Shown here piece by piece: positions 3,556-41,839 of a stretch of 41,839 nucleotides of DNA (its first letter is position 1; each line of letters starts with the position of its first letter). Source of the DNA: a virus; IMG/VR virus record IMGVR_UViG_3300044994_000073, one strand, 5' to 3'. The notes below the pieces were generated by a model. That model had not been told where the DNA came from. It saw only the letters and a program-made list of their open reading frames with translations, and ran no database searches. A program made the translations under genes and the position numbers.

Positions 3556-3603
3556 TGTATGCTGATGTTGGTTCATGGGTTTTGCCCTGTGTGAGTTGTG
3601 TGG

Positions 3604-3639: not shown

Positions 3640-3642
3640 GCG

Positions 3643-3671: not shown

Positions 3672-3683
3672 CGAATTGTGAAC

Positions 3684-5126: not shown

Positions 5127-5144
5127 CAATAAGGAGACAAACGT

Positions 5145-5345: not shown

Positions 5346-5354
5346 GTAAACACT

Positions 5355-7351: not shown

Positions 7352-7360
7352 TGTCGCTTT

Positions 7361-12363: not shown

Positions 12364-12871
12364 GACCGATAGCCGCTATTGGGTCCGCGAGGCCACAGAG
12401 CAGGACGCTTACGAATTGGCGCCCAAACTCCGTGACGAAGACGTGGCCGAAATATGGGCGGCGAATAGGGCCACGCCATTAGACGCCTTGCTTTTAGGTG
12501 TCCGGAGTAAATACGGTAAAGCGTGGACCGGTCTTGACGGGAACGAAGTCAAACTGATGTTCGGCGTCACGGCGAACTCTGCATTCACGTCTATTGGCGT
12601 TCCGTGGTTCTTGTCGGCCCCGCTGACGCCAAGCCAAGACGTTGCTTTGGCCAGACGGTCAATTTACTATGTCGAAATGATGAGGGCCGATTTTCCAATG
12701 TTGGAAAATTACACCGATGCCCGCCACAAGGCGGCTATTCGGTGGCTGCGGTGGTGCGGGTTTACGGTGGAACCCGCGGAACCGTATGGCGTTGATAAAC
12801 TTCCATTCCACCGATTCTGGATAAAAAGCTATGTGCGCCCCAGCAATCCCAGTGGCAATGGTTGCCCTTAG
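12350..12871 (+). CDS. Internal-virion-protein-A position; GNAT-like/DUF2833-like (putative)
   Basis: 173 aa following the nozzle. C-terminal AAIRWLRWCGF is reminiscent of an acetyltransferase-fold phage protein. Confidence 0.5.
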   Translation: MAKTKTDSRYWVREATEQDAYELAPKLRDEDVAEIWAANRATPLDALLLGVRSKYGKAWTGLDGNEVKLMFGVTANSAFTSIGVPWFLSAPLTPSQDVALARRSIYYVEMMRADFPMLENYTDARHKAAIRWLRWCGFTVEPAEPYGVDKLPFHRFWIKSYVRPSNPSGNGCP

Positions 12872-18000: not shown

Positions 18001-21000
18001 CGAAAAGTTCAAAGACCAAGAGCACAAAAACAAGTATTTCACCGAAGAAGAGCAAAAACAAAAAGCGGAGAAGGTCGGATTCTCGCAATCCAAGCAGGAC
18101 GAGCAAACCGTCGGGATGGTTGACAATATGGTCCAGCGGCAAGAATTTGAAAAGCTGCTGGCTCAGAATTTCCGCTATGTCGCGCAGTATTGGGACTCCG
18201 GAAACTTCCAAGGCTATGTCGCCTCAAATTCATTTGAGAAAGTGGACAAGTTCCTGAAAGCCGCAGGTGATCTGAACAACAAGTTCAGCACCGGCCCGCT
18301 TGTGCATTATGTGAGCGGGGACCCGGTTGTTCGCCGTGGCCAAGTTGTATCCACCACTGGCGCGGAAACTCAAGAAGGCTCTCCGGCATTTACTGATTTT
18401 AAGGCCGTCTTTGGAGCAAAGCGTTTTGTCGATTCTTTGGTCGGGGCCCTTCTGGAAGGCTACCCTCAGTTGGGCGGAAAAGCCACCGAATTAGAGCTCT
18501 TGGGGCTTAAATCGGATAAAGAAGACGAAAAGCTTAAAGAGAAGAAAAAGCAGATCAGAAAAGAGCTTGTCGGAAAAATGACCGACAAAGAAAAAGAGGG
18601 CCTCATCAAAAAGTTTGTTGAGCGAATCGAAGACAATTTGATCTGGCTGTATAACAAGACTCCTAAAGACTTCAGAGAAAAATCTTCCAGATGGTATGTT
18701 GGAGCGAATAGGCTAGCAAATGAACTCGCTGAAAAATACGGCATCACGATAGAGCAATCGTCGGCCATCATCGCTGTTTTGAGTCCGCGGACGGCTTGGG
18801 ACCTCAACATCGGACAAGCCATTTGGGTGATGCGGGTAATGACTGATCCTACCGCCGTCGTCACTCAAAATTTGATCGACAGTTTTTATGCAGGATTGGA
18901 GGACTCTGTAACGGATGGGGAAAAACCCCTTGCTGATAAAGACGCATTGGCCGGTCTAATAGGCAAGCCGATAAATGAAATTGAAAATCTGGACCATCAG
19001 GCGTGGATGCTGCGAGCTTATGTTGAGTCACAAGACCGCAGCTATCATATTTACGACCCCACTGGAACTCCGGTCGGCAAAGCGATCGACAAGGAAGGCA
19101 AACTGTCAGAATTGGCGTGGAATAGCTATGGAAATACAAAGAAAGCCATAGAAATTTTCAAAGGCGCAGACATCGAAAAAATCAGCGATTTGCTGGGCGG
19201 CGCGCATAAAATACGAAACTTCTACAATAACATCGTTGACCCAACAAACGCTGAAAGTGTAACCATCGATACGCACGCTATCGCCGCCGCGTTGTTCGCG
19301 CCTTTAAGTCAAAAAAGCAAACCGGCCAATGACGTTTTTAGCGGGCCGTCTAACACTGAGCTTGGGCTTAAAGGCCTTTACATACTCTATGATGAGGGCT
19401 ACAAGCGCGCGGCTTCTAAACTCGGTATCACTTCAAGAGAACTTCAAAGCATCGTTTGGGAAGCGGCCCGTTCAGTATTCACGGACACACTGAAACGGGA
19501 TAAAGCCCTTGTTGAAAAAGTGTCCGCAGAATGGGCCGAATTCCAGAACGGTGGTCAGTCGCTAGAAGAAACCCGAGAAAAGATTTTTAAGTTGGTTGAC
19601 GGATTTAAGCAAAACCCGCGCAACTGGGTTTCCGATACAGACGTTAAAGAAAACGACATCGCCGCCGGAGTTAACATCCGGCTTGAATCTGAAAACGGTG
19701 AAGCCCGAACCAAGAGCGGCTTGAGTAGTCTTCAGGCCCAACAACTCATCGAACGTGAGTTCGGCGCAATCGCCAGAAAACTTAAAGCGGGCTTGAGTCA
19801 GAACTACATTGGCCATGACGCAAGCTACATTTATTCCGGCAGGCAAGGCTCCCATTACATCGAATTCAACCCATCGGCATTAGCAAACGACTACACTATC
19901 GACGAGATTCGCGCGGCAATGCGCGAAGAAATCGTGCACGCTGCGATTGGTCAAGTGCTCAGAAAACGCGGCCTAAGCTGGACACAGTTTCACGAAAACG
20001 TGGCCAAGCTGATGACCAAAGATGAAAAAGCCGCGCTCAAAAAAGTCTATACGTCTTTGAGCCTAAAAGACCATGTCGGTGTCGGTGCGGAGTTTGTTCG
20101 GCTCATCATTCAGAAGCAACTTTATCATGTCGCGACCGAAGAGGCGTCCGGCAAGAGCCGAGCCGTTAAGTATGTGCTGAAGGCCGTCGCTCAGGCCCAT
20201 AATTTCCTACGGCGGCTCAAAGCGGACAGCAGTGCCGAGGCCCAGCAAATCCGGGCCGTGATGAACGAAGCCGTGGACATCATCCGGTCTGCAGATAAGA
20301 CTTTACAATCTTCTCCGGGTAGGATACTATTCCAAAGTGAAAATGACCCAAGTGCTCAAAATGGCGGCAGTCAGGTTCTGGCTAGCCTTCCGCTGCCTGA
20401 GAAACAACTCTACTTTGCGTCTGAGCTACGTAATCAGGCGCAGGCTACTCTCGCCGCGCTACCTGTTCTCGACGCAAATCAAATTGCGCAAATAGTCGGC
20501 GGGGCCAAACTGGAGCAGCCGGGCGGCTCCGAAGTCATGGGGCTGTGGAGGACCCCGACCGGAATCGTTAAGGCCCTCGACTTTGACTCAGCCCTGCATC
20601 TTGAGGACTTAATAATCACCGGATACGGCGGGCTCGCTGCGGATATTTACGACTCCTCTAGCAATACTCCGGAAGAGACCAAGCTCAGACTTGTTGAGCG
20701 GTATCTGCTGCTGAATTCGATGAATTCGGGCACGCCGACTCAACTGCTGGGCATGACCGACATCTATGGTCCGCCGACTCTGCTTATCAGCCAGCCAGAA
20801 ATGTTCGGCGTGCCGAACTGGTATGACGCTGATGTCAATGACGTAATTGACAAATTGCTAGAAAATAAAAAGGCCGTTAAAATCACCAACTTCCGATCTC
20901 TGCTGCTGAACGCCGATAGCACAGCGCAGACTTACGTGGTGCAGATTCCGTCCGGTGCTTATGTGCTGGTGTCGGATTTGCGGGGGCCCAACGCAGGCTA

Positions 21001-24000
21001 CACAGGGCTGGATCGAAAAGACGCTAAGACATTCGACCCCATAATCCGAATGCTCACACCGGGCGAGCTCAAGATTCCTGAGATTGCCGCCGCCGTTAAC
21101 GAGATCGAAACGAAGCAGCAAAATAATGCCTACTTCCAGAACGAGGACCGCGGGCCGCGGGTTAACGGAGCAATCGAATTCAATCCGGGTAACGTGACGA
21201 TACATCTGTTCAAGACCGCCAACTTGAGCACATTGCTGCATGAATTGGGCCACTTGTTTGTTGGGGAGCTGGAGCGTCAAGTTCGCGCTGGATTTGGCGG
21301 GCCGAAAGCCCTTGCCGAACTCAACACGCTCCGGGCTTTTGTTGGCGCGCTTGACCCAAGTAAAGAGCTGACCACTGAGCAGCACGAAAAGCTGGCCCGG
21401 GCCTTTGAAAGCTATCTTCGTGAAGGCCGCGCCCCGACGATCGGGCTCGCCCGCGCTTTCCACAGTTTCAGGACTTGGCTCACTGCAGTCTATCGTGGCA
21501 GCTCAATTCTCGACATTGAGATGAGCCAAGAGGTCAAAGAAGTGTTTGACCGGCTGCTGGCGGCTGAAGAGGAAATCGCTCAGGCCGAACAGTTCTACGG
21601 GAACCGAGACAGACTTTTAGCCCTGATCGCCGTTGAAAACGACGAAGAAAAACTCAAACAGAAACTAGAAGACGCCCGGCGATCCGAATTGGAGCACCAG
21701 ACATCGATCAGACTGAAAGCATACATTCGCGCCCTTGGCGGTCTCAGCAAAATTAAGACTGAGCAAACAGCTCAAGTTGAGTCACTGCCTGTTTACCAAG
21801 CAATCGAAAAAGCGAAAGCGCAAGGCGGCATATCGGCTGGTTCAATCGCCGCGTTGCTTGGTGACTCCGCCGTGGAGGTCCTCGCTAATAAATACCCGAA
21901 TCTAATCACCGATGACGGTCTAGACATTAGCGGGCTCGCTTTTGATGTTGGACTGACCAGCGGCGAGCAGCTCGCCGAACAGCTACGTGACGCGGTCCCG
22001 ATCAGCGAAGCAATCAATGCCGCTGTCAAACAAGAATTGCGCCGCGTTGAAGAGTCCATACGCAACGACATTTCGAAAAGCCCTATCACCGAAGCGGATG
22101 AAGCTCTGCATTCTGACAAGTCTCTAGAATATCTGATCGCCGAAACAGAGCTGCTACGATCCAAATTAAAAAGAAAATCGGTTCGACCGCGGCTCTTTGC
22201 TGAAGCCTACACGCAGGCCGCTGAGGAGTTCTTGGGCTCTCTCAAATTCTCAGACTCGATAAATTACTCTAGATTCCTGAATCAGGAAAAACGCCTTGGC
22301 GCGGAAGTCCTAGCCGCAGCCCGCAAAGGCGACTGGGACCGTGCTTACCAGTTGCGTGAAAAACAACTTTTGTATCACGCGATTGTCCGGGCCAGCATCA
22401 AGGCTCGCAAATACCGTGAGAATTTAGAGCGGCGGTATTCCAAGAGCAAAGTCAATTCGTTGCTCGACAAAATTGAAATGGCGTATCGGCCAGTGGTCCA
22501 GACTTTGTTGTCACGGTATGGACTGCTGCAGTTTGATGGCGCAGAGTTTAATCTGAGTGATTTGCGTGAACTCGACGAAGACGGCGGGTTGGACGCTTTG
22601 ATGCCGGACTGGATCAAGCAAAAACAGAATATCGGGGGCTACCGGAATCTGACACTTAGCCAAGTTCGCGAGCTTGACGAAACTATCAAGAGCATTGTCG
22701 CGTATGGCCGTGACGCCATGACATCGCTCAAAGAATCAGAAGCGAAGACGCTTAGCGAGTTTGTCCAGAGTAGCGTTGAGCGTATGCAAAAACTGAAAGA
22801 CGCCAAAACCGCTCAGCGCGGAGATTGGAACTACCCGCTCATTCAGTTCGCGCATCAGATCAAAGCCGGGGTTCAGATGGCCCAATTCGTGGCCGACATT
22901 GCTGACGGCTTCACCAATCTGAAAGAAGGCAAACAGGGTCCGCTCCGTAAGCTTTATCAGCGGCTCGTCACTGCTGAGCTGGAACAATCTAAGCTGGTTG
23001 ACACAGTGCTGAAGGCCAGTGAACCAGCTTGGCAAGTGCTGCATCAAGCCGTGCTACGAATTGAGAAGGAGATGGGCGGAAAGTATTTCGACATCGACGG
23101 GCTTGAGCTACCACATGCGATGGTCCGCGAAGGCAAAGGCAAATGGACCGGTGAGATGGTGGTATCTGCGCTGCTCAACTGCGGGAACCAAGGCAACCTC
23201 ACCGCGCTTCGAGAGGGCTACAATCTTCCGGAAGATGCCGCCGACCGATTGGCCGCTCTGCTAACAGCTGAAGAGCTCTACGCCATTCAGAAGATATGGG
23301 ATGCCACTGATCTGCTGTTCGAGCCTATCAATCAGACCCACATCAAAATCTACAACCGGGAAATCAAAAAAGTCCAAGCCGATCCGTTGGTGCTCCGTTC
23401 GAAAGACGGCGCGGGCGTCAACCTAAGAGGCGGCTACTACCCGCTGATATTTGACCACGAAATCAATGCACGCGCCGGTAGGTTCAACGAAGAAGACCTG
23501 ATGAAGAACAAAGCCGCTGCGGTGTTTCGTTCGGTCACGCCAAACAGCGGGTTTGCTAAAACACGCCAAGGCACCTCGTTGCCGCCTGAACTGTCTCTCA
23601 ATGTGTGGATCAATCATGTTATCGACGCGAGCCGCTACGCAATGCTCGCGCCGGTAATTCGAGACTGGAACCGCGTATCGACCAAAGAAGAATGGCGCGA
23701 AACGTATCTCGATAAATTTGGCCGCGAGTCTTACAACGCGCTGCGAGACTGGGTCAAGTATCAGGCGGTGCCTAAACGTATGCAGACTGAGTCTTGGGTC
23801 CGGGGGCTCGACAAAGCCGCCGACTGGCTTAGGGCCCGATCCAGTTATGCGTTGTTGGGGTATAAACTCGTCTCTGGTCTCGCGCAGCGCACTGCGCTGC
23901 TTAACTCCGCGGTGGCTCTTGGCGGGTGGAAGTGGATCGGAATTGGATACTCTGCCGTTGCTCAAAAGGGGCTTGGCACCGCGTTGATTGGAACAACCAA

Positions 24001-24865
24001 CACTGACGCATGGAGCGCGATCATTGGGAAAAGCGAATACATGCGAAAACGGGAAGACAACATCGATCGCGAGATTCGCGACATTGTCAGCCGAATCCAA
24101 CTTGGCAAAAAAGTCTTCACGATTGCCGGGCGGGAATTCACTGTGAGCAATGTCCGCGATCTGGCGTTTGAGTGGATGAAAATGAACGACCGAGCTGTGG
24201 TTTCAGTTGTGTGGTCTGGCGCGTATCAAAAGTATCTCCAGACTCTAGCTGATGAGAGCATGACATTAGAACAGCGGGAGAAAGCCGCCGTGGAATACGC
24301 TGACACCGTCGTTCAAGACACCCAGCCGTCTGCGCTCAAAGCGGAAATGAGCTCCGCCGCCAGAGCAGAGGGGTGGGTGCGACTGTTCACCATGCTAATG
24401 ACGTGGTCCTTCAAATTTGGCAACCGCCTGTTCTACTACGGTAAGGCCTACTCAGAAGGCGCAGTGTCAACCAAAAACTATATTCGGCACATAACCTATG
24501 AGGTCTTTATGGAATCGTGGCTCCGCACATTGCTTTACAGCGCGATCGCCGGGACCGCGCCCGAATGGTGGAGATTCCTAGTCGGACCCATAGAAAACTT
24601 GATCCAATGGATTCCGATTATCCGCGACATTCCGGGAACTCTGGCGACAAAAGGCCAACTGCTAGACCTGAACAGATCGCCTTATATGGAAGGCTTCAGA
24701 AGAATCAGTAAGCTCATTAAATCCGCCGATCCGGAGAAGCTCCAAGAAGACGACGGCGTGAGCAGATTCGCTATGGATTTGTTCCGGGCCACCGCGTTTG
24801 TCACCGGCACCCCCATAGACAACATCGTCAATGACATCCGGCGATTCACTGATAGAAAGGATTAA
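15095..24865 (+). CDS. Giant 3256-aa virion/ejection 'polyvalent' protein (gp16 position) with a CmoA-like SAM-enzyme domain and a HExxH module
   Basis: Single uninterrupted 9771-nt ORF between the internal virion proteins and the tail fiber. Class I SAM-fold motifs at aa 816-1046. HELGH at aa 2049-2053. Confidence 0.9.
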   Translation: MDPFEQPQEDNGILATAGLDSAPPAPKQLQPSVADSGSSLLDAAGLPSAEESLRLPKGGAAFADQIPGELLKMPKALRAEYVAKLSGDIQEGLKWMGESPEKAAEIAAVMRRFNLPADKAKEQLPEIKASEESIKIAKELLATDEKGEPLYPALAKLAADPSHLIGDNERRKALMEIEESVRQSKQADEGFLTQQARGIVNALFSLLDTGVSSYHAVAAARADAYWQQILDNLPAGIDPQVRDELIKIKDEALNQSIEIRNARSEIAESMLGGFSPEKAANFFKPQAGESPTELISKGFYTEGAYQFVNQGLQSLYDWAAASVAAAGNPTGAMALLSAKSAFGAFDEAQRDGASKENAIVRAGGHGLLEYVFEKLGTLGIIKEASSVKKLTPKSMLGLASRSYATEAVSEGATSAFQNLVTIATDGNMGLREFLFSISDSALAGGFSGAAMSTIISTASYGLNYKKIHNAENKLAQHDGLAEKIKFVAAKNADPQATQSAVETILNEHQVSDEVFVPASKVRNLFQTDEQYVEFMGKLGVSEQQAIDALTNEAASELKVKYSAYLAHSATVSNIESIKADLRFGENNMTANEAAMTKAWLNEEINTIRERLAAESTGVLPAQIQAIRESLKNFRNQDGGGFTQEQIDHYLNLMLSGAAIAAKRQDVSVEDWLSANGVNVNVNTKAVFAPDGKSIWIIPEGQPSPQELYAKDMAEQREFMRQKMLENPNFTDEDFQRWAEEWRAAHPRFDKNGKQLFQEAPESSNRSPRVGLEFKDFFRKVTSGLFGKSKIPFVPELIDLSKDKKIIEEMHKYIGNFDDHIFKSIPAFYELKVRTIKGFLTLPKGSKVLDIAASEGSFGKTISALSKGKIETVSLDPNRAMKKTFDDLPQAPGAAFAAEAFLNGFRDEEDGVTYNAHNPDVKYDAIHESMGFQFIDPDRTAQIAEVVRLLKDDGLFVTSEKLLNPDWEKNEKFKDQEHKNKYFTEEEQKQKAEKVGFSQSKQDEQTVGMVDNMVQRQEFEKLLAQNFRYVAQYWDSGNFQGYVASNSFEKVDKFLKAAGDLNNKFSTGPLVHYVSGDPVVRRGQVVSTTGAETQEGSPAFTDFKAVFGAKRFVDSLVGALLEGYPQLGGKATELELLGLKSDKEDEKLKEKKKQIRKELVGKMTDKEKEGLIKKFVERIEDNLIWLYNKTPKDFREKSSRWYVGANRLANELAEKYGITIEQSSAIIAVLSPRTAWDLNIGQAIWVMRVMTDPTAVVTQNLIDSFYAGLEDSVTDGEKPLADKDALAGLIGKPINEIENLDHQAWMLRAYVESQDRSYHIYDPTGTPVGKAIDKEGKLSELAWNSYGNTKKAIEIFKGADIEKISDLLGGAHKIRNFYNNIVDPTNAESVTIDTHAIAAALFAPLSQKSKPANDVFSGPSNTELGLKGLYILYDEGYKRAASKLGITSRELQSIVWEAARSVFTDTLKRDKALVEKVSAEWAEFQNGGQSLEETREKIFKLVDGFKQNPRNWVSDTDVKENDIAAGVNIRLESENGEARTKSGLSSLQAQQLIEREFGAIARKLKAGLSQNYIGHDASYIYSGRQGSHYIEFNPSALANDYTIDEIRAAMREEIVHAAIGQVLRKRGLSWTQFHENVAKLMTKDEKAALKKVYTSLSLKDHVGVGAEFVRLIIQKQLYHVATEEASGKSRAVKYVLKAVAQAHNFLRRLKADSSAEAQQIRAVMNEAVDIIRSADKTLQSSPGRILFQSENDPSAQNGGSQVLASLPLPEKQLYFASELRNQAQATLAALPVLDANQIAQIVGGAKLEQPGGSEVMGLWRTPTGIVKALDFDSALHLEDLIITGYGGLAADIYDSSSNTPEETKLRLVERYLLLNSMNSGTPTQLLGMTDIYGPPTLLISQPEMFGVPNWYDADVNDVIDKLLENKKAVKITNFRSLLLNADSTAQTYVVQIPSGAYVLVSDLRGPNAGYTGLDRKDAKTFDPIIRMLTPGELKIPEIAAAVNEIETKQQNNAYFQNEDRGPRVNGAIEFNPGNVTIHLFKTANLSTLLHELGHLFVGELERQVRAGFGGPKALAELNTLRAFVGALDPSKELTTEQHEKLARAFESYLREGRAPTIGLARAFHSFRTWLTAVYRGSSILDIEMSQEVKEVFDRLLAAEEEIAQAEQFYGNRDRLLALIAVENDEEKLKQKLEDARRSELEHQTSIRLKAYIRALGGLSKIKTEQTAQVESLPVYQAIEKAKAQGGISAGSIAALLGDSAVEVLANKYPNLITDDGLDISGLAFDVGLTSGEQLAEQLRDAVPISEAINAAVKQELRRVEESIRNDISKSPITEADEALHSDKSLEYLIAETELLRSKLKRKSVRPRLFAEAYTQAAEEFLGSLKFSDSINYSRFLNQEKRLGAEVLAAARKGDWDRAYQLREKQLLYHAIVRASIKARKYRENLERRYSKSKVNSLLDKIEMAYRPVVQTLLSRYGLLQFDGAEFNLSDLRELDEDGGLDALMPDWIKQKQNIGGYRNLTLSQVRELDETIKSIVAYGRDAMTSLKESEAKTLSEFVQSSVERMQKLKDAKTAQRGDWNYPLIQFAHQIKAGVQMAQFVADIADGFTNLKEGKQGPLRKLYQRLVTAELEQSKLVDTVLKASEPAWQVLHQAVLRIEKEMGGKYFDIDGLELPHAMVREGKGKWTGEMVVSALLNCGNQGNLTALREGYNLPEDAADRLAALLTAEELYAIQKIWDATDLLFEPINQTHIKIYNREIKKVQADPLVLRSKDGAGVNLRGGYYPLIFDHEINARAGRFNEEDLMKNKAAAVFRSVTPNSGFAKTRQGTSLPPELSLNVWINHVIDASRYAMLAPVIRDWNRVSTKEEWRETYLDKFGRESYNALRDWVKYQAVPKRMQTESWVRGLDKAADWLRARSSYALLGYKLVSGLAQRTALLNSAVALGGWKWIGIGYSAVAQKGLGTALIGTTNTDAWSAIIGKSEYMRKREDNIDREIRDIVSRIQLGKKVFTIAGREFTVSNVRDLAFEWMKMNDRAVVSVVWSGAYQKYLQTLADESMTLEQREKAAVEYADTVVQDTQPSALKAEMSSAARAEGWVRLFTMLMTWSFKFGNRLFYYGKAYSEGAVSTKNYIRHITYEVFMESWLRTLLYSAIAGTAPEWWRFLVGPIENLIQWIPIIRDIPGTLATKGQLLDLNRSPYMEGFRRISKLIKSADPEKLQEDDGVSRFAMDLFRATAFVTGTPIDNIVNDIRRFTDRKD

Positions 24866-31106: not shown

Positions 31107-32339
31107 TTAGGGTTTGGCCCCGGCAGATGGGGAAATTGGCATCGGCTCCGACACGGAAACTTCAGAAAACTCTGACAACACGGGCACGTAAGCAGGCTTC
31201 TTCGATTCTGCACGGGCCAGCGCGAGACCGCCCGGAGCGCGCACAGTCCAATCGGGCGGCGCGCCATCAAGACCGTGCTCACGGAAAATTTTATCAGCCT
31301 GCGCAGGCGATATAAGCTTCTTGGTGTATGCGTTTTCGCCAAGCGCAGCAATCAGTTTGGACTCGCCCTCCGGTGTCCATTTCCGGTCGCCGTCGCGACC
31401 GTGAACGAGCTTCCACCCGGGATGCGTCTCGCCGTTCGCTAAGCGTTTGAACAGCATCCGCTTGGCGTTTTCGGCCCAATCAGAAATTAGCTCAGCGGCA
31501 TCCGCAATTTCGGCAAGCCGATCCACTGATAGCTGTGCCGGATCGGGCAGCGCGATTGGCGCGCCGAAGTCAACGCGAGCCACTTGATAGGCTCTCTCAG
31601 CAATCGCCGGGCAAGTATTTTTAGCCGGGCAAAACTGGCACCATGCCCCCGCATGACGGGGCGCAGCCGAATCATCAGTAGCTTTGGCTTTGTGCAGCAG
31701 CGGGCCATAAGCCCACTGAGCCAGCTCTTGGCCCGTAATCCGGAAATATCGGATCGGGGCCCCGCCAGCGCGAGGCTGCACGATCGCCACGTCCACCTCA
31801 TCAATAACATCTTCGATGACGTGGTTGCGCAGCAGCTTGCAGAGCTCCAATGCCGCACCGAGAGCGTAAATCAGAAGCTGCGGGTTGTTCTCCACATCGA
31901 CCACTTTGCCTTGGCCGTGCTTGTAATCCCGCACGTAGAGGGTCCGCACGTCCCCGTGGTAGGCCCAAAAATCGCAGGTCCCGCCGAGGTCTTTGTGAAT
32001 CGTTGGCAGCGTAAATTCGGTCTCGATACCATAATAATCGGCGAGCCCTTTCAAATTTTGACATTCCTCAACGTAAATGGTCAACGGCTCTACCATGTCC
32101 GCTGTGACAACCATTTTAGTTTCAGGGCACACTTGGCCGACAAACTGATCCGGTGTCTTGGCGTTTGTGACCGGAGTCCGGAGGCACTGCTCCGCAACCC
32201 AATGAGCCGTGGTGCCCTCATCAGCCCATACCGATGAGGGAGCTTTCGGAGCGGAGAGCCTCGCGGCGGGCTCACCGGGACACTCTATCCAACGGTGAGC
32301 CGCGCTAGGTGATAGTTTGTAGTGCCGCTTCTCTTTCAT
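31107..32339 (-). CDS. PD-(D/E)XK nuclease, DUF2800 / Cas4-like with Cys cluster
   Basis: YKLSPSAAHRWIECPG, RDYKHGQG...NPQLLIYALGA, C-terminal CQFCPAKNTC (Cas4/AddB-style cysteines). Confidence 0.82.
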   Translation of the reverse strand: MKEKRHYKLSPSAAHRWIECPGEPAARLSAPKAPSSVWADEGTTAHWVAEQCLRTPVTNAKTPDQFVGQVCPETKMVVTADMVEPLTIYVEECQNLKGLADYYGIETEFTLPTIHKDLGGTCDFWAYHGDVRTLYVRDYKHGQGKVVDVENNPQLLIYALGAALELCKLLRNHVIEDVIDEVDVAIVQPRAGGAPIRYFRITGQELAQWAYGPLLHKAKATDDSAAPRHAGAWCQFCPAKNTCPAIAERAYQVARVDFGAPIALPDPAQLSVDRLAEIADAAELISDWAENAKRMLFKRLANGETHPGWKLVHGRDGDRKWTPEGESKLIAALGENAYTKKLISPAQADKIFREHGLDGAPPDWTVRAPGGLALARAESKKPAYVPVLSEFSEVSVSEPMPISPSAGAKP

Positions 32340-34153
32340 TGGAAGCTCCGATTGATCAGGCTTTCACGTTCGGAAACGGGAATCTCCCGCACGTTCTTCA
32401 ATCCGGCCCGGGTCAAATAGGCCTTAATGAGATCGATGTTGCCGGGGGCTTTGCTGGCGAACTCAACGCAAGCTTTTTTCCACGCCTCATCGTTGGCAAA
32501 CTCCGCGGCGGCAGGCTCAGCAGCAGCAGCAGCGGCGGCGGCAGGCTCAGCAGCAGCGGCGGCAGGCTCAGCAGCAGCGGCGGCAGGCTCAGCAGCAGCG
32601 GCGGCAGGCTCAGCAGCAGCGGCGGCAGGCTCAGCAGCAGCGGCGGCAGGCTCAGCAGCAGCGGCGGCAGGCTCAGCAGCAGCGGGTTCCGGCTCCGGCT
32701 TTTTACCGCGCTTCTTTGGCGAAGCGGGCTGCGGCTCAGTTTGGGGTTGAGCAGCGGATTCGGCCAGAATGTCAGCGGCCTGAATGAAGCCGTTGCCGAT
32801 TGCACGGAATGCGCGGCTCAGATTAACAGCATTTAGGGATTGGTTCATGGTCTCTTTCTTTGGTTCGGGTTTGGGTTCTTGTTTAGACTTTGCGAGAATC
32901 TTCTCCAAAGTCAACATCTTTTTTAATATCACATTCGCGATCATGGCGTCAATAGAATTTTCCGCCACAAGATAATAAATGTTGACCGGCTTGTTTTGCC
33001 CGATTCTGTGGGCACGGTCTTCGGCCTGTTCGTTGACCCCCGGGGTCCAGTCGTATTCAGCGAAAACAACAATCGGCGCGGCGGTCAATGTAATTCCGAC
33101 GCCCGCGGCGCGTATGTTGCCGATGAACACCCGGCAATCCGGATCGGTCTGAAACCGGTTAACAATTTGCTGGCGGCTACTGACAGATGTCGAGCCGTCA
33201 ATGACCAAGGCCCGCTTTCCGAAGTGCTGCCGAAGCCCGTCAATGACGGCCTTGTGGTGCGCGAACACCAGCACTTTTTCGCCGGTTTCTTCCAGCAAAT
33301 TCTCAACAAAATCTATAGCCGCTGGCAGCTTTTGCTCACCCAATGCGGCGCGCAACGTGGCCAAGTCGCCGAGGTGCTCAAACTCTACGTCCCAGCCCGT
33401 TTCGGCTGCTTGGATCATGCCGATTTTTCCATCGACCGCCTGCTCAATGACGGCCCTGCCAGAGTCCGTAATCTGAACGGGCACCACCTGACGGGTCTTT
33501 GGCGGCAACTCCGTGAGCACGTCGGCTTTGGTTCGGCGTAACATGATCGGCTCCAATTTCTGGCGGAGCTCTGCGGTGTTGGTGGCCCCGCGTCCGCCCC
33601 CGAACAGCCCGCCGCAATAGCGAATCTTGAAAGCGGTCAGGCTCGACACGATCTTTTGCCGCAACCACCAGAGCACGGGATACAATTCCAGCGGGCGATT
33701 TAGCACTGGCGATCCAGACATGGCCCACCGCCGCACGGATGGGATAGTGAGCAGTGCTTTAGTTCTTTGACTGCGGGCTTGCTTGATGTAGTGGGCCTCG
33801 TCCGCTATGACCAAGCCCCACTTCCTTGCGCACAAAGATTTGTGGTGCGCTTTCAAAATGTCATAGTTGACAATAGTCACCAGAGGCAAACCGCTGTCAT
33901 GTTTCGCTTTTTTGCCAGATAGAATGCCGGCGTGCGGATACCATTCCGGGCACCACATCTTAATTTCAGCAAGCCAGTTGGCTTTCAGAGTAGCCGGGCA
34001 CACTATCAGCACGCCATCCTCAAGACGAACAGCCCGCCGAGCAGCAACAAGGGCCTGAGCCGTCTTGCCCAAGCCCATTTCATCAGCTAGCAAGGCCTCA
34101 TTTCTCTGAGCCAGAAACAGTGCTCCGGCTTCTTGGTAATGCCGGAGCTGCAT
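32336..34153 (-). CDS. SNF2-family helicase with repeat linker and extra C-terminal domain
   Basis: DEMGLGKT, VIADEAHYIK, QAEDRAHRIGQ. ATGA overlap with the nuclease gene. Confidence 0.93.
   Translation of the reverse strand: MQLRHYQEAGALFLAQRNEALLADEMGLGKTAQALVAARRAVRLEDGVLIVCPATLKANWLAEIKMWCPEWYPHAGILSGKKAKHDSGLPLVTIVNYDILKAHHKSLCARKWGLVIADEAHYIKQARSQRTKALLTIPSVRRWAMSGSPVLNRPLELYPVLWWLRQKIVSSLTAFKIRYCGGLFGGGRGATNTAELRQKLEPIMLRRTKADVLTELPPKTRQVVPVQITDSGRAVIEQAVDGKIGMIQAAETGWDVEFEHLGDLATLRAALGEQKLPAAIDFVENLLEETGEKVLVFAHHKAVIDGLRQHFGKRALVIDGSTSVSSRQQIVNRFQTDPDCRVFIGNIRAAGVGITLTAAPIVVFAEYDWTPGVNEQAEDRAHRIGQNKPVNIYYLVAENSIDAMIANVILKKMLTLEKILAKSKQEPKPEPKKETMNQSLNAVNLSRAFRAIGNGFIQAADILAESAAQPQTEPQPASPKKRGKKPEPEPAAAEPAAAAAEPAAAAAEPAAAAAEPAAAAAEPAAAAAEPAAAAAEPAAAAAAAAEPAAAEFANDEAWKKACVEFASKAPGNIDLIKAYLTRAGLKNVREIPVSERESLINRSFQ
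32506..32690. repeat. In-frame 21-bp tandem repeat (one 30-bp copy, then seven at 21-bp period) encoding (AAAAEPA)n in the SNF2 gene
   Basis: GCAGGCTCAG starts at 32511, 32541, 32562, 32583, 32604, 32625, 32646 and 32667. Confidence 0.95.
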
Positions 34154-36681: not shown

Positions 36682-36703
36682 GCCAATTCAAGACGTGGGC
36701 AAC

Positions 36704-36747
36704 AAAAAAGACCCGGCAGCGATAAGCCGCCGGGTCTTTCCGTTTTT
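36704..36747. terminator. Bidirectional intrinsic terminator between convergent operons
   Basis: A6, then 8-bp GC stem GACCCGGC / GCCGGGTC (36710-36717 / 36729-36736), then TTTCCGTTTTT. Confidence 0.75.
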
Positions 36748-36758: not shown

Positions 36759-36947
36759 TTACTTGATTCGACCGCTAGCTTTCAGCGCGGCCAGTCCGGA
36801 CTCAACTGCTGCGGATACCTCGCAACGATACGATTGAGCCTGACTGCGGCGCACGGCCCGCTTGGTGGAGCTGCTGGCACCGGAATTCAGCACGCGGCGT
36901 TCGGAAGCTTCACGGTTGATTTTAACGATTTCTTGCAGACCATACAT
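36759..36947 (-). CDS. Small basic hypothetical protein (62 aa), last gene of the early operon
   Basis: GAAAGGAACCACCACCATG initiation region like other early genes. Followed by the terminator. Confidence 0.5.
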   Translation of the reverse strand: MYGLQEIVKINREASERRVLNSGASSSTKRAVRRSQAQSYRCEVSAAVESGLAALKASGRIK

Positions 36948-36976: not shown

Positions 36977-37717
36977 TTATTTTCTGACTTTCGCCAGAAA
37001 AGCCTCATCCGTCAAAGAGCCTGCGAACCCGCATTTTTCGACCTTGGAATCGCCGAATTTAGCGGTCTTCAGATTGCATTTGACAAAACTACAATAGGCT
37101 ACCGAAGCGAGCTCGAAAGTCGAGCTGTCAAATCCGCATTTGAAAAAGTCGGTGCCCCTAAGTCCGGCCCGCGAAAAATTCACACCGCCGAATCCGCAGA
37201 AGTCAAACAACGAGTCGTAAATCGAAGCGAAGCACAGGTCCGCCCCATTAAACAGCGTGCTCCTGAAATTGCTGAATTCCAGCAAGCAGCCAATAAGTTT
37301 TGCGCTCAAAAAATTCCCGCGCTTTCCGGAGAAATCGCGGAAATCCGCATTTTCAAGGTCCGCATACTCGAACACGGATTCGTTTGATTTTGCGCCGTAA
37401 AACGATGTTTTGCGAGCGACCGCGGTAGTAAAATTCACATGCTCAAGTGAGGCGTCTTTGAACGTGGCCCCGGAAATATCGGAGCCCTCAAATGAAGCGT
37501 GCTTAATGATCGCGCCTTTAAGATTCGCATCGGTCAGCTTACAACCCTTAAATGACACGCCGAGAAGATAGCTACCAGACAGGTCAACACCACTAAGTCC
37601 GGTATATTCCAAATCAATTTTGTTTCTGATAGCGTCTTTTACGGCGGCGGTGAAGTCAACGGCTTCAACGGAATAAACGATTTGCCCAGTGCGGATATTG
37701 TAGATTGATTGGTTCAT
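36977..37717 (-). CDS. Pentapeptide-repeat protein 1 (246 aa)
   Basis: Continuous A(D/N)LXX-type repeats (GVDLSGSYLLGVSFKGCKLTDANLKGAIIKHASFEGSDISGATFKDASLEHVNF...). Short N-terminal cap IRTGQIVYSVEAVDFTAAVKDAI. Confidence 0.9.
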   Translation of the reverse strand: MNQSIYNIRTGQIVYSVEAVDFTAAVKDAIRNKIDLEYTGLSGVDLSGSYLLGVSFKGCKLTDANLKGAIIKHASFEGSDISGATFKDASLEHVNFTTAVARKTSFYGAKSNESVFEYADLENADFRDFSGKRGNFLSAKLIGCLLEFSNFRSTLFNGADLCFASIYDSLFDFCGFGGVNFSRAGLRGTDFFKCGFDSSTFELASVAYCSFVKCNLKTAKFGDSKVEKCGFAGSLTDEAFLAKVRK

Positions 37718-37741
37718 GGTTTTATCACGGTTAAGAGTTTG

Positions 37742-38491
37742 TTAAGTGGAAGATTTTTTAAGTGCCTCGCCATCGATCAGTGCATCGGTGAAATCGGCGT
37801 TGGCTGTATCAGATTTACGCAAATTGGAGCCTCGCAAATCGGCACGAATGAACGTCGCATTGGTGAGGCCCGCATACTCGAAATTGCACTCGTAAAAGTC
37901 ACCGCCCGGAGCGTAGGCACCTTCCAGCTCCGCGCCGCTGAAGTTGCACTGAGCGGCGTCAATGCCGCCGATGTAAGCACCGGTCAGATCGGCTGACTCA
38001 AAATTCGCACGGCAGCAAATAGCGCGGCAGAAATTAGCATCGGCCAGATTAGAGCGGGCAAAATCCGCACTAATTGCGCGCGACTTCTCAAAAGTGGAGC
38101 CGCTCAAATCGCCGTCTGAGAACGTGCAGAGTTCAAGATCGGAGTCAAAAAAGCTGGCGTTTTTCGCGGACACAAACGACAAGTCAGAGTCATACAAACA
38201 CGCATTGGCCAGATTCGCCCGGTCAAGATTTGTCCGAATCAGTGAAGCAGCTTCCAGATTCGCACCAGCCAGATCGGAATCCTTCAAATTGCATCCATCG
38301 AGATTGGCTCTGTAGAAGTCCGCTCCGACCAAATATAGTTTGCTCAGATCGAGCCCCTGCAGCCGGGCATAGCGAAAACTGACGCCCTTCTTAACCGCGC
38401 TCTCGATGTCTTTTCTCAGATGGTTCGGCGTAGTCACCAGAATCGGCTGACCAGAAGGTCCGCCAAGTATCGTTATTTTTTCGTCGTTCAT
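37742..38491 (-). CDS. Pentapeptide-repeat protein 2 (249 aa)
   Basis: ARLQGLDLSKLYLVGADFYRANLDGCNLKDSDLAGANLEAASLIRTNLDRANLANACLYDSDL... ATG at 38491 with an SD-like AAGAAAG. The longer tracked start overlaps PRP3. Confidence 0.9.
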   Translation of the reverse strand: MNDEKITILGGPSGQPILVTTPNHLRKDIESAVKKGVSFRYARLQGLDLSKLYLVGADFYRANLDGCNLKDSDLAGANLEAASLIRTNLDRANLANACLYDSDLSFVSAKNASFFDSDLELCTFSDGDLSGSTFEKSRAISADFARSNLADANFCRAICCRANFESADLTGAYIGGIDAAQCNFSGAELEGAYAPGGDFYECNFEYAGLTNATFIRADLRGSNLRKSDTANADFTDALIDGEALKKSST

Positions 38492-38543
38492 GGTTTTGTG
38501 CTTCTTTCTTGATTGTTTCAGTTGTTTAGGTTGTTGCGTTTGA

Positions 38544-39083
38544 CTACAAAAGTGCGTTTTCGAATATCGCTCCTTCAATCTGAGACCGATCGAGGTCCGC
38601 ATCTTCTAGGCAAGCTCCACGGAAAATGCACCCACGTAAATCAGCTCCGGTGAGTTTAGCACCAGTAAGATCGGCACCGGAAAAATCAGAGCAGCACAGT
38701 ATCGCGCCGGTAAAATTGGCCCCGGCCAATATGGAGCCCCGGAAGTCCACAAACCGGGCCTGACAAACTGACAGGCACGCCAGCCGGAGATTCGCTCCAA
38801 CAAATTCCGCGTTTTCAATGTCCGCGTTGTAAAGATCGGCGGACTCAAGATTCGCGCCTGCAAACAACGCCCGCCGAAGTGAGCTGTCTTGGAGCTGGCA
38901 GTTGCGCAGATCGGCGGCTATTAGGTTCCCGCTATTGGCAACCACACCGGCTAGGCTCTGGTTTTTTAGATCGACACCCGCTAAACTGATGCCTCTATGG
39001 ACTGCTGCGGTGATTGACTCTGCAAGCCCGCCGTCAAATTTGAACACGGGCTGGCCCCATTTAGATTTAAGTTTTGTTGTCAT
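38544..39083 (-). CDS. Pentapeptide-repeat protein 3 (179 aa)
   Basis: GVDLKNQSLAGVVANSGNLIAADLRNCQLQDSSLRRALFAGANLESADLYNADIENAEFVGANLRLACL... Confidence 0.9.
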   Translation of the reverse strand: MTTKLKSKWGQPVFKFDGGLAESITAAVHRGISLAGVDLKNQSLAGVVANSGNLIAADLRNCQLQDSSLRRALFAGANLESADLYNADIENAEFVGANLRLACLSVCQARFVDFRGSILAGANFTGAILCCSDFSGADLTGAKLTGADLRGCIFRGACLEDADLDRSQIEGAIFENALL

Positions 39084-39120: not shown

Positions 39121-39345
39121 TTACTCTTGGTCGGAATCTACTGGCAAAATGCACTCAACAAACTCCGACACTGGCAGATACCACCCGAACGAAAGCACGG
39201 AGGAATGTGCAGCATCGTGGTAGCCAAGTGCGGTCAAAAACTTAATTACCCGCCCGAATTCGTAATCCGGTAATTCGCAGATCGGGGTGTCCTCATACTC
39301 ATTGATGAGGTGCTCCGCTATGTTTTTCGCTTTTTCGATGTTCAT
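39121..39345 (-). CDS. Small acidic hypothetical protein (74 aa)
   Basis: AAGGAAAAGCAAACACCATG initiation region. Its start overlaps the upstream stop. Confidence 0.6.
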   Translation of the reverse strand: MNIEKAKNIAEHLINEYEDTPICELPDYEFGRVIKFLTALGYHDAAHSSVLSFGWYLPVSEFVECILPVDSDQE

Positions 39346-39599
39346 GGTGTTTGCTTTTCCTTGGTTGTGTTTTCGCTTGTTTGCTCTTGGCCAATTTTTT
39401 CGGCCCATTCCAATAGAGCTTGCCGCAGAGCTTCTTTCGGGTTGAGACGCTTGCGCCTCACTCTCAATTTTGCGATCGCTTTTGATTGTTTCTTTATCAG
39501 CCCCTTCGCTGGCCATACTTGCAGCTCGAAGCCGGAGCGGCGTTCTTCTATGCGCAAAAGAAGCCAATCTACCTTATTTTCTACCTGATCAGGGTTCAT
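39342..39599 (-). CDS. Small basic hypothetical protein (85 aa)
   Basis: GAAAGGAAAGAAAATACCATG initiation region. Confidence 0.6.
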   Translation of the reverse strand: MNPDQVENKVDWLLLRIEERRSGFELQVWPAKGLIKKQSKAIAKLRVRRKRLNPKEALRQALLEWAEKIGQEQTSENTTKEKQTP

Positions 39600-39642
39600 G
39601 GTATTTTCTTTCCTTTCTTTTGTAGGTGTGTTCTTTGTCTGT

Positions 39643-39927
39643 TCAGTCGATGTCAAAGTCTAGGGTGGCCCCAAATCCGGCGTTCCGAAAAACCCGGCAC
39701 TTGGAGCCGGGCGTGATGGCTTGGAGCACTTTTTCGAGTGCCCGGATGCTCTTGATGAAGTGGAACTCGCCGTCCACTTTGACGGTGAACTTGACCATGG
39801 GGTCAATCTCAACCCGCCTCGCAACGGCGGCTTTCGCCGCTGCGATGAGTGGCTTGGTGTCAACTCCAACGCAGCCGCTGGGGAGTTGAACCTGATTGAG
39901 TTCGAATATCTGGTTAATGGTGTTCAT
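39643..39927 (-). CDS. Hypothetical protein (94 aa)
   Basis: ORF in the operon with an ACCATGAAC start context. Confidence 0.6.
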   Translation of the reverse strand: MNTINQIFELNQVQLPSGCVGVDTKPLIAAAKAAVARRVEIDPMVKFTVKVDGEFHFIKSIRALEKVLQAITPGSKCRVFRNAGFGATLDFDID

Positions 39928-39942
39928 GGTGGTTGTGGGTGG

Positions 39943-40362
39943 TTATTTGACGATGTAGGGAGAAAGCCAGAAAGCCGGGTTAAATTTTCCACCGAACTCC
40001 TGCAAGTATTCCGGAGTCCTAGCCACAAGAGACTCTTCAATGTGGCCATCGTTGAATATGACCCGAGCGGCAATCGCTTTCTGATCGACCAATCCGGAGA
40101 GACACTCGCAAATCAGTTTGTGGGCCTCATCGGAATTGAGATTGACCGGAACCGTGAACGCTACAGCCAAAGTCTCTTCAGTTTCGCCGTTATGAGACTG
40201 AACGGAAAGCCGCTTGGCTATCTCACGCCAGCCTTTGCGACGCTGTAGGGCCCGCCGGAGCGATTTGAGCGATTTGTTTACACGCTCACGGAGCGGTAAG
40301 AGCGGTTTGTTTTCCGGGTTGATGCCCGGCTGGAGTCCGATGTTAATTTCGATAGCGGTCAT
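39943..40362 (-). CDS. Hypothetical protein (139 aa)
   Basis: CGAAAGGCAAACACCATG initiation region. Confidence 0.6.
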   Translation of the reverse strand: MTAIEINIGLQPGINPENKPLLPLRERVNKSLKSLRRALQRRKGWREIAKRLSVQSHNGETEETLAVAFTVPVNLNSDEAHKLICECLSGLVDQKAIAARVIFNDGHIEESLVARTPEYLQEFGGKFNPAFWLSPYIVK

Positions 40363-40463
40363 GGTGTTTGCCTTTCGTTGTGTTACGTGAGTCAATGTAA
40401 CAGCTTTTCATTTCAGCGCAAGAGAAAAATTCAAAATTTTTTTGAAAATTTTTCGGCTCCGAC

Positions 40464-41231
40464 TTAAAATATTGAATCTGAAGCACTTACAGAGCTGCTG
40501 TTCTCCGTATGAGTCGTTATATTTGCGGGTGGCCACGTGGTCAACTGCGGATTCTGACGAACCCATGCCGCGCATGAGTCTATCCATGACCACATCAGCC
40601 CGACTTCCGGCCAGATTCCCGGCTTACGCAGAGAGTAGGGCAAACTCGCACGCTGTTCCGGCGATAGAGGTAACGCCACAGAGCAACCCGCAGTTGCATC
40701 ACGAAGCGCATCAGCACCGCCGCAAAGCCACTGAAGAGCATCCAGCCACTGATGCAATGTCCATCGGATGGTCTTTGGCAATCCGTGGTGCTCTTTCGAT
40801 TCGATGGTGGATTCCGCCCGGGTCCAGCAGACCCACTGAAGCGGTTTAACGTCCACAAGTAGCTTGTCTGCCCACAAAGGCCTTGGGTGCCTCAAAACAA
40901 TCGGCATCCCGGTTCGGTAGTCTATGGCTAGGGGGACCACGCCGTCCGGGTGCTCCGCAGAGAACAGAGCCAGCCATTGACTGCGACGCAGCGCGGAGTA
41001 GCGGTAGTGCTCTTTTTGACGCCCGGACATGTTCTCCAGATCGGCACTGCTGGCCAGCAGTCCGGATTGATGCGACTTGCGGGCCCGGTAACGTCGCATC
41101 CGCTCTGCGGTCTTGGCACGTTGCCGTTGTTTTTGCTCCATGTTCGGGTCGGCTTTTAGTAGTTCACGGATTGCCGCCAACGTGTCGGGGTCCGCCGCGG
41201 CAATGGCGGACAAGAGCTGATTAGGTGTCAT
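40464..41231 (-). CDS. First early protein (255 aa), Trp-rich, with N-terminal basic motif AERMRRYRARK
   Basis: Long ORF directly downstream of the candidate early promoter. No recognisable enzymatic motif. Confidence 0.6.
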   Translation of the reverse strand: MTPNQLLSAIAAADPDTLAAIRELLKADPNMEQKQRQRAKTAERMRRYRARKSHQSGLLASSADLENMSGRQKEHYRYSALRRSQWLALFSAEHPDGVVPLAIDYRTGMPIVLRHPRPLWADKLLVDVKPLQWVCWTRAESTIESKEHHGLPKTIRWTLHQWLDALQWLCGGADALRDATAGCSVALPLSPEQRASLPYSLRKPGIWPEVGLMWSWIDSCAAWVRQNPQLTTWPPANITTHTENSSSVSASDSIF

Positions 41232-41696
41232 ACAGAGCCCATTATTGGCCAGCTGTAGTGCAAAGTCAACCTATAACATCGCTATTACAGCAGGTTGACC
41301 GTTGTAACGATTGCTAGTTTTTCGGCTCTTTCTGCGGAACTAGCGATGTTACGCGAAAACTAGCAAAAGCTAGCCGTTACGCTCGTAACGCTGCAAGTTT
41401 TTCGCTATTACAACAAGTAACATTGCTATTTTTTGAATGTTACGTTTTTAACTGCAGGACTAGCACGTTACGCACTATGAAAAACGGCATTTTTTTGTTA
41501 GGCGTAACAAGTTTTTCGCTAGTTTTTGCAAGTCTATTTTTGAGAATAAAAGCAAGTAACACCAGAAGCGGCTTGCGTTCTTTTCATGTAAAACGCTAGT
41601 TCTCATCGGTGTCCTTCGGACACTCTCTGCGCCGTGCCGTTACGTTACGGCACCGGCGCGGCGAGTAGAGGACACCGTGATGCAGCAGCCAGCAGC
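41232..41696. promoter_or_regulatory. Non-coding, AT-rich, repeat-dense control region (candidate early promoter cluster / origin / packaging region)
   Basis: No credible ORF. 12 GTWAC pentamers, 3 CTAGC-N0-3-GTTACGC composites, repeated CGCTATTACA, AACATYGCTATT and AGTTTTTCG words, and GC hairpins at 41609-41653. Confidence 0.7.
41241..41269 (-). promoter_or_regulatory. Candidate sigma70-type early promoter giving a near-leaderless transcript
   Basis: Minus strand: TTGACT (41264-41269), 17-nt spacer, AATAAT (41241-41246). The ATG at 41231 is 9 nt after the -10. Confidence 0.45.
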
Positions 41697-41839
41697 GGCT
41701 GGCTAGCTGGATGCTGGCTAGCTGGATGCTGGCTAGCTGGATGCTGGCTAGCTGGATGCTGGCTAGCTGGATGCTGGCTAGCTGGATGCTGGCTAGCTGG
41801 ATGCTGGCTAGCTGGATGCTGGCTAGCTGGATGCTGGCT
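41697..41839. repeat. Right terminal tandem array: one degenerate copy (GGCTGGCTAGCTGGA), 8 full copies and 8 nt of the 15-bp unit
   Basis: Read directly. Same register as the left array. Confidence 0.97.

Follow-up and report, generated by a model that had tools for sequence, protein, structure and literature searches.

The 41,839-nucleotide viral sequence IMGVR_UViG_3300044994_000073 from IMG/VR (hereafter the window, meaning the whole stretch of DNA analysed) carries three consecutive minus-strand genes encoding pentapeptide-repeat proteins (PRPs), here termed PRP1, PRP2, and PRP3 in order of increasing coordinate (Table 1). A first-pass annotation made from the letters alone had described three such genes with products of 246, 249, and 179 aa, built almost entirely of A(D/N)LXX repeats, and our scan of open reading frames (ORFs) agrees with it. 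All three products match the Pfam families PF00805, PF13599, and PF13576 (Pentapeptide, Pentapeptide_4, and Pentapeptide_3), with E values of 1e-23 to 1e-34. We assigned proteins to the PF00805 superfamily when at least eight contiguous A(D/N)LXX repeats scored above the Pfam gathering threshold, and the trio scores 82-115 bits for a threshold of 20.2. A single five-residue register runs from the end of the N-terminal cap to the C-terminus of each protein, with no inserted loops, and amounts to ~40 repeats in PRP1, ~41 in PRP2, and ~29 in PRP3, i.e., to ~10, ~10, and ~7 coils, respectively. The individual pentapeptides are diversified and do not form low-complexity sequence. The start of PRP2 is an internal ATG of a longer mechanical ORF (286 aa, reaching 38602), but its placement at 38491 is backed by a close relative of the window, in which the ORF begins with the same MNDEKIT.

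The short N-terminal caps reported in the first-pass annotation are present in the three proteins and can be aligned with one another (G-Q-x-[VIL] ... A-[VI]-x-x-G). Pairwise identity among PRP1, PRP2, and PRP3 is 24-34%, which agrees with their earlier description as diverged paralogues rather than recent duplicates. As this identity is no higher than that between each of them and PRPs of unrelated phages, the three genes are either old paralogues or separate acquisitions. PRP3 had also been described as richer in Cys and Arg than the other two, which holds only marginally: Cys makes up 3.9% of its residues (3.2-3.3% in PRP1 and PRP2), and Arg, counted from the sequences, 5.6% (3.7% in PRP1 and 5.2% in PRP2).

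AlphaFold2 modelling, which the first-pass annotation had proposed, returns confident right-handed quadrilateral beta-helices for PRP1 and PRP2. The PRP2 model (predicted local distance difference test, pLDDT, of 93.8; predicted template modelling score, pTM, of 0.88) consists of a hairpin (residues 6-20), a helix (22-34), one strand per five residues, and a five-residue C-terminal helix (241-245). The PRP1 model (pLDDT 88.9) has a cap helix at residues 19-31 and a C-terminal helix at residues 237-245. When compared with Foldseek, PRP structures are the sole matches, and solved PRPs are matched with a probability of 1.00. The best of these matches, with E values of ~1e-13, are the synthetic protein beta1, HetL, and Np275/276, while QnrB1, AhQnr, AlbG, MfpA, and EfsQnr follow with E values of 1e-9 to 1e-7. 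Together with the Pfam matches of all three proteins, the two models identify the trio as genuine PRP beta-helices.

The first-pass annotation had pointed to Qnr, MfpA, and AlbG, which act on gyrase, as possible counterparts. These proteins and EfsQnr resemble the trio in fold, length, and mild acidity, but the trio falls far below the curated family cut-offs: 35-56 bits for Qnr (NF033086, cut-off 240), 26-49 bits for the Qnr allele models (cut-offs 425-500), and 43-46 bits for MfpA (NF000349, cut-off 360). As the five-residue register is unbroken, Qnr-type loops A and B are excluded, and no indels separate the trio from its orthologues. The C-terminal tails are short predicted helices in PRP1 and PRP2, while PRP3 has no non-repeat tail. 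In the close relative, PRP1 ends nine residues earlier, before its helix, and the PRP2 tail is unrelated. Unlike proteins of the Qnr/MfpA type, the trio therefore appears to lack a conserved C-terminal dimerisation helix. No neighbour similar to MfpB (a small GTPase) was found, the adjoining genes being without matches in Pfam or PHROG. The trio thus misses several features that define the known families of DNA mimics or gyrase-acting proteins, and membership of the gyrase-acting families is not supported. The closest matches, both in sequence and in structure, are the solenoids of HetL (3DU1), Np275/Np276 (2J8K), and synthetic beta1, which share with the trio a regular, uninterrupted repeated-five-residue (Rfr) helix with an N-terminal cap. 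HetL nevertheless differs in its context and biology (heterocyst regulation), and the trio reaches neither its cut-off (58-97 bits for 260) nor that of Alr5209 (56-84 bits for 125).

Charge provides a second comparison. PRP1 has a net charge of 0 (0 per 100 aa, pI 6.7), PRP2 of -11 (-4.4 per 100 aa, pI 4.6), and PRP3 of -4 (-2.2 per 100 aa), while QnrB1 and Mycobacterium tuberculosis MfpA, whose sequences we verified as 100% matches to PDB chains, have -6 (-2.8 per 100 aa) and -5 (-2.7 per 100 aa), respectively. In acidity, PRP2 and PRP3 thus equal the gyrase-acting PRPs, which shows that charge density discriminates poorly. The charge of PRP2 is owed largely to the canonical Asp of the repeat. 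On a face map unrolled from the repeat register, acidic and basic residues are intermingled on all faces and there are no acidic stripes. Moreover, orthologues in the window and the close relative are separated by 8-21 charge-changing substitutions, and their net charges drift (PRP1 0 vs -4, PRP2 -11 vs -9, PRP3 -4 vs -1).

These properties differ from those of Ocr and ArdA, the phage and plasmid DNA mimics to which the first-pass annotation had likened the trio. The underlying idea is the same, namely an early-expressed rod imitating DNA, but the folds are unrelated and the trio lacks the extreme, patterned negative charge; ArdA has been described as enveloped in conserved ribbons of negative charge (PMC2731889). 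On the register-based map we find no dense, helically patterned negative charge, and the Pfam matches of the trio include only pentapeptide-type families, with no Ocr or ArdA family among them. An acidity of the Ocr/ArdA kind is accordingly not borne out, PRP1 being neutral, net charge unconserved, and acidic stripes missing. In PRP3, outward residues on faces 4 and 1 are nearly invariant between orthologues (2 of 45 changed), compared with 11 of 43 on faces 2 and 3 (Fisher p = 0.006, post hoc), which hints at a flat protein-binding surface formed by adjacent faces rather than at mimicry all around the rod. Our data neither demonstrate nor exclude DNA mimicry by the trio, for which PRP1 is the least likely candidate.

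The three proteins are conserved in arrangement in a small set of closely related sequences. We found an identical arrangement in one Joint Genome Institute (JGI) contig and in contigs from two Sequence Read Archive (SRA) runs, as well as all three PRPs in one diverged relative, IMGVR_UViG_3300044939_000134. Scans of IMG/VR with PRP2 and with the primase each returned one relative, the same in both cases, while a scan with PRP1 returned none, and the only hit of a single metagenome scan was an unrelated PRP (29% identity). The exact PRP sequences are missing from the clustered protein collection, which is why a homology search with PRP2 returned generic matches of ~30%. Between the window and its relative (two sequence variants only), the primase is 95.8% identical at the amino acid level, with a ratio of nonsynonymous to synonymous substitution rates (dN/dS) of 0.07, and the PRPs are 78% (PRP1, dN/dS 0.18), 74% (PRP2, 0.21), and 84.9% (PRP3, 0.21) identical. 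All PRP frames are intact and no indel occurs across the 179-249 aligned residues, at a dS of 0.4-0.67. Substitutions affect 8-13% of inward, core-facing positions and 15-33% of outward ones. The trio is therefore under purifying selection, its core being conserved and its surface evolving faster. This, together with the lack of indels in the helix, indicates that the proteins are functional.

The PRPs diverge faster than the replication genes, as nucleotide identity to the relative is 90.4% in the replication module, 80.9% in PRP1-PRP2, and 85.2% in PRP3. In addition, small-gene indels are found at both flanks of the PRPs, and the relative carries two extra paralogous ORFans (158 and 83 aa) between PRP2 and PRP3, which have the motif KKEDGWH.G.LP.AYPTP.ECY in common and no PHROG match. 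At a greater distance, no PRP was detected in the 20 kb examined of five contigs (representing four phages) whose primases are 37-53% identical to that of the window, although three of the five keep the synteny of the polymerase, single-stranded DNA-binding protein (SSB), exonuclease, and helicase genes. The co-occurrence in related phages that the first-pass annotation had suggested looking for is thus seen in the close relative and not in the more distant phages examined. Faster divergence, gene flux, and absence from more distant phages all point to the trio being lineage-specific accessory cargo of a variable region.

The operon that contains the trio runs on the minus strand from ~41231 to 36759, and all its members other than the PRPs are ORFans (Table 1). 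The PRP genes are co-oriented and separated by gaps of 24-52 nt. A hairpin between this operon and the convergent primase gene likely terminates both; it was read directly from the sequence and is not among the sites listed by our consensus terminator scan. This layout supports co-transcription of the PRPs within an ORFan accessory operon ending at a strong terminator. Upstream of the first gene lies a weak, consensus-only match to a sigma-70-like promoter, and the consensus scan for promoters and terminators found no more sites in the region than in shuffled sequence. The first-pass annotation spoke of an early operon in a lytic phage. An early operon fits the layout and is plausible, both terms having been inferences of that annotation rather than observations.

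Table 1. Positions of the PRP genes, their surroundings, and the elements compared with them
Feature	Sequence	Position	Strand	Description
PRP1	window	36977-37717	-	246-aa stand-alone PRP; Phe-rich; helix cap; short C-terminal helix
PRP2	window	37742-38491	-	249-aa stand-alone PRP; most acidic of the trio; beta-hairpin and helix cap
PRP3	window	38544-39083	-	179-aa stand-alone PRP; N-cap; C-terminus inside repeats
Upstream operon genes	window	39121-41231	-	five ORFans of up to 255, 150, 94, 104, and 70 aa as scanned; no Pfam or PHROG match
Last operon gene	window	36759-36947	-	62-aa ORFan, missing from the close relative
Hairpin (likely terminator)	window	36703-36737	unstranded	12-bp G+C-rich stem followed by a T-run
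Sigma-70-like promoter match	window	41241-41269	-	TTGACT-17-AATAAT
TGCTGGCTAGCTGGA tandem repeat	window	1-127		8.5 copies
TGCTGGCTAGCTGGA tandem repeat	window	41698-41839		9.5 copies
3256-aa ORF	window	15095-24865	+	after gp14-like and 580-aa internal-protein genes
SNF2-type helicase gene	window	32336-34153	-	
21-nt tandem repeat	window	32527-32685		7.6 near-perfect copies, inside the helicase gene
Extra ORFans of the relative	IMGVR_UViG_3300044939_000134 (L003)	11613-12089; 12133-12384	-	between PRP2 and PRP3
gp60 (SBVc24_0060)	KJ572844 (L019), Vibrio phage 24	12900-13322		140 aa
Barba gp043	L014, Rheinheimera phage	4935-5582		gp60-type C-terminal domain
Barba21S gp041	L014, Rheinheimera phage	3249-4226		labelled 'pentapeptide'
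RW gp016	L007, Caulobacter phage	6489-7559		gp60-type C-terminal domain
Array of 3-5 PRP genes	L090	8884-11906		
Array of 3-5 PRP genes	L022	8730-12501		
Array of 3-5 PRP genes	L043	2875-6681		
Array of 3-5 PRP genes	L131	82-2832		
Array of 3-5 PRP genes	L068	101-2130		
Array of 3-5 PRP genes	L078	5681-9407		

As a whole, the window is a near-complete podovirus genome, with structural genes (terminase, T7/epsilon15-like portal, major head protein, and tail tube protein) and replication genes (DNA polymerase A, exonuclease, SNF2-type helicase, Prim-Pol/AAA primase, and Enc34-type SSB). No integrase or RNA polymerase was seen among the ORFs scanned, no topoisomerase is present among the annotated ORFs, and PADLOC, a library of defence-system proteins, gave no match. 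Among the 50,697 isolated phage records searched, none matches the region at the nucleotide level, and the best identities between window proteins and those of isolates are 37-45%. The window contains no tRNA genes, and the names of homologues gave no clue to the host.

The cap places the trio in a wider group. The N-caps are a divergent form of a widespread motif, MKIEIK.R.tG.VLF...a..L..AVe.Avk.Ga.L, a profile of which retrieves 990 database proteins, the motif being evident in nine of ten examples inspected. Among phages, it is found in Ralstonia phage Sarlave S3_00013 (QMV33657.1) and Caulobacter phage RW gp016, and probably in cluster E mycobacteriophages (e.g., Goku gp56), where the tblastn alignment starts at residue 1 of PRP3. 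The trio aligns with the capped proteins of Sarlave, RW, and the viral contig IMGVR_UViG_3300031669_004532 (L068 in Table 1), and the AlphaFold2 model of PRP2 shows a hairpin and a helix at the cap. Like the trio, the PRPs of Sarlave, RW, cluster E, and L068 combine the cap with a PF00805 helix (35-41% identity from residue 1) and are set among ORFans and replication genes, and none has a known function. Those of Sarlave and RW differ in having extra C-terminal domains and near-perfect consensus repeats, whereas the trio proteins are stand-alone and each of their repeats is diversified.

According to the first-pass annotation, a trio of PRP genes is not a standard phage module, which is overstated. 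We sampled 120 IMG/VR loci (L020-L139) carrying the motif ADLSGANLSGA and scored their stop-to-stop ORFs with the trio. PRP ORFs numbered zero in five loci, one in 100, two in nine, three in one, four in three, and five in two. Thus, 15 (13%) of the 115 PRP-bearing loci have two or more PRP genes and six (5%) have three to five, although these fractions are rough, as the sample is biased towards consensus-like repeats, loci are truncated, and ORF calls are automatic. The larger arrays consist of same-strand tandem paralogues in unrelated viral contigs. Most of them arose by recent duplication, their N-termini being nearly identical (L090, L022, L131, and L068 contain such recent tandem copies), as opposed to the old and strongly diversified trio. 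A phage context was confirmed for two of them: in L090, five PRPs follow a replication-initiator gene in the vicinity of RecT and RecE, and the L068 contig, in which at least three tandem PRPs have the same N-cap as the trio, also carries a DNA polymerase, TerL, and a minor head protein. Rough as they are, these counts establish tandem PRP arrays as a feature that recurs in phages and has gone undescribed, and the trio is not unique.

Single PRPs are also common in phages. Using tblastn, we detected PRPs in 325 isolated phage records, including mycobacteriophages and Rheinheimera, Staphylococcus, Listeria, Ralstonia, Caulobacter, Microcystis, and P22-like Salmonella phages, and the BFVD database contains 33 viral PRP structure clusters, none of which is characterised. 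The number of match places per record was rejected as a measure of PRP copy number, being inflated by internal repeats. For phage L/ST64T (PMC8022706) and for Listeria phage CKA15 (PMC12282133), PRPs have been noted in early regions. In other cases, the PRP gene lies close to replication genes: directly after the DNA polymerase gene in Caulobacter phage BL94, two genes before the primase gene in E. coli phage P64441, and upstream of the primase gene in Vibrio phage 24 (gp60).

This last gene is, in the literature searched, the single phage PRP gene with genetic anti-defence evidence. Vibrio phage 24 mutants escaping the RexAB-like system Sucellos are mutated in gp60, and deletion of gp60 makes the phage much more sensitive to Sucellos (10.1101/2024.07.02.601686). 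Like the trio, gp60 is a PRP that a phage encodes at an accessory site close to its primase gene, and it is missing from the sister phage CP-T1. Unlike the trio, it consists of a short basic stretch of ~9 ANLRG repeats and a non-PRP C-terminal domain (RAGCQ..T.EEW...), in which the published escape mutations (residues 110-115) lie, outside the repeats. This domain is common to Rheinheimera phage Barba gp043 and Caulobacter phage RW gp016 (Table 1) and missing from the trio, whose BLASTP similarity to gp60 is limited to generic repeats. The gp60 precedent supports the view that phage PRPs can be anti-defence proteins, and it lends no support to placing the trio in the gp60 family.

The Rheinheimera Barba phages were also considered as an analogue of the tandem arrangement and rejected, as their second 'pentapeptide' gene belongs to another family. 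The product of this gene, Barba21S gp041, has a NTGN(R/W/Q)-type repeat of the PF01469 class. A true PF00805 PRP gene follows two genes downstream of it, so that two types of five-residue-repeat proteins are encoded side by side.

The explanation we tentatively favour, and to which we would give a little less than an even chance, is that the trio consists of diversified accessory proteins, three differently surfaced rods that bind host proteins stoichiometrically. The proteins are cytoplasmic, stand-alone, capped PRP beta-helices (of the subfamily MKIEIK...G.VLF...AV..A...G), which the phage retains as accessory cargo in a rapidly changing operon next to its replication genes and presumably expresses early. 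Each would form a rigid rod ~20 Å wide and 35-50 Å long with its own distinct surface, and each would occupy a site on a different host protein, probably a DNA-handling enzyme or a defence sensor. Such binding, whether inhibitory or as a decoy, would shield phage DNA replication. The position, turnover, and surface divergence of the genes fit host-interaction or counter-defence genes, PRP genes lie in early or replication regions of many other phages, and the charge density of PRP2 and PRP3 is close to that of the verified QnrB1 and MfpA sequences. The trio is possibly anti-defence or topoisomerase-directed. The first-pass reading as DNA mimics or topoisomerase modulators stands to that extent, with the PRP fold, the accessory operon, the faster evolution of the PRPs, the lineage-specific presence, and the gp60 precedent on its side, while its links to gyrase families and to Ocr-type charge are not supported.

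Several observations weigh against host-protein binding by the trio. PRP1 is neutral, and surface charges are mixed and unconserved between orthologues. We detected no signal of positive selection, with a dN/dS of 0.14-0.26 at outward positions, in a comparison that rests on the two variants mentioned above. The sole PRP with experimental anti-defence evidence uses a C-terminal domain that the trio lacks, and in a genome as small as that of a phage, lying next to replication genes may mean little.

Other explanations give the same fold a different task. One or more of the PRPs might bind gyrase or topoisomerase IV in the manner of Qnr, MfpA, or AlbG, as mimics of the T- or G-segment, and so tune supercoiling for replication or guard gyrase from toxin-antitoxin toxins or microcins. 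The Foldseek matches to all of these proteins, a charge density of PRP2 and PRP3 that brackets those of QnrB1 and MfpA, the adjoining replication genes, and the lack of a phage topoisomerase among annotated ORFs speak for such an activity. We nevertheless hold it to be unlikely, since the scores are far under the curated Qnr and MfpA cut-offs, the trio is nearer in sequence to HetL, Np275/276, and synthetic PRPs, the unbroken register leaves no loops A or B, PRP3 has no C-terminal helix and those of PRP1 and PRP2 are short and unconserved in the relative, and none of the adjoining genes resembles MfpB. Decoys of the Ocr/ArdA type, i.e., negative rods lodged in the DNA-binding groove of type I restriction-modification or bacteriophage exclusion (BREX) methyltransferases, are very unlikely. 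PRP beta-helices do have about the diameter of B-DNA, as is established for MfpA, and both the acidity of PRP2 and the accessory, probably early position of the genes would suit such a role, but charges of only 0 to -4.4 per 100 aa, with basic residues on each face and no acidic ribbons on the register-based map, and many charge-changing substitutions between orthologues, are hard to reconcile with it, as are the missing Ocr/ArdA Pfam match and the empty PADLOC result.

The partner might instead be the phage's own replication or transcription machinery (e.g., primase-helicase, polymerase, or SSB), which the PRPs would regulate or scaffold. PRP genes are recurrently found beside replication genes, as in the window (primase), BL94, P64441, Vibrio phage 24, and L090. 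However, phages with the same replication module have no PRP in the 20 kb examined, so that the module works without one, and three diverged copies amid surrounding gene flux suit an accessory rather than a core function, which makes this role quite unlikely. Finally, the genes could be functionless or selfish repeat cargo, i.e., low-complexity genes that have expanded without playing any part in infection, as the trio has no close homologue of known function and PRP repeats duplicate readily, as the recent duplicates in L090, L022, L131, and L068 illustrate. The selection data (intact frames, no indel over 179-249 residues at the observed dS, a dN/dS of ~0.2, and individually diversified pentapeptides) disfavour this explanation, which we consider highly improbable.

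Stoichiometric binding of host proteins by the trio may be one instance of something broader. Tandem arrays of surface-diversified, stand-alone, capped PRPs might form a widespread, unrecognised phage toolkit of rigid, partly DNA-like decoys, each of which may disable another of the host's DNA-sensing defences or DNA-processing enzymes, in analogy with the ankyrin-repeat host-range families of poxviruses. The trio may be one diverged example of it and the IMG/VR arrays of two to five genes others. As a general statement this is doubtful, and we regard it as rather unlikely. Hundreds of phage genomes have annotated PRPs, whose role there is almost unexplored beyond the single genetic hint from gp60. 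If the trio and the arrays proved to inhibit several targets among host defences or DNA enzymes, they would represent a new structural class of counter-defence proteins and provide tools with which to probe those systems of the host; were they to act on gyrase, phages would be using the Qnr strategy. The trio itself is a reasonable experimental candidate and not a discovery, and recurrent phage PRP arrays are a more interesting lead than this locus.

Three further features of the window lie outside the PRP genes (Table 1). Both ends are perfect arrays of a 15-nt tandem repeat, TGCTGGCTAGCTGGA, and the 127-nt overlap between them is made solely of this array. The ends are compatible with a circular assembly. 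The array occupies the divergent intergenic region that separates the PRP operon from the structural one, and may represent a break in the assembly, an origin, or a site of regulation or packaging. The 3256-aa ORF, whose sole Pfam match is DUF7178 (residues 1175-1251), presumably encodes a giant gp16-like ejection or internal virion protein. Lastly, the 21-nt tandem repeat falls in the last quarter of the coding sequence of the SNF2-type helicase gene, where it encodes a low-complexity Ala-rich stretch.

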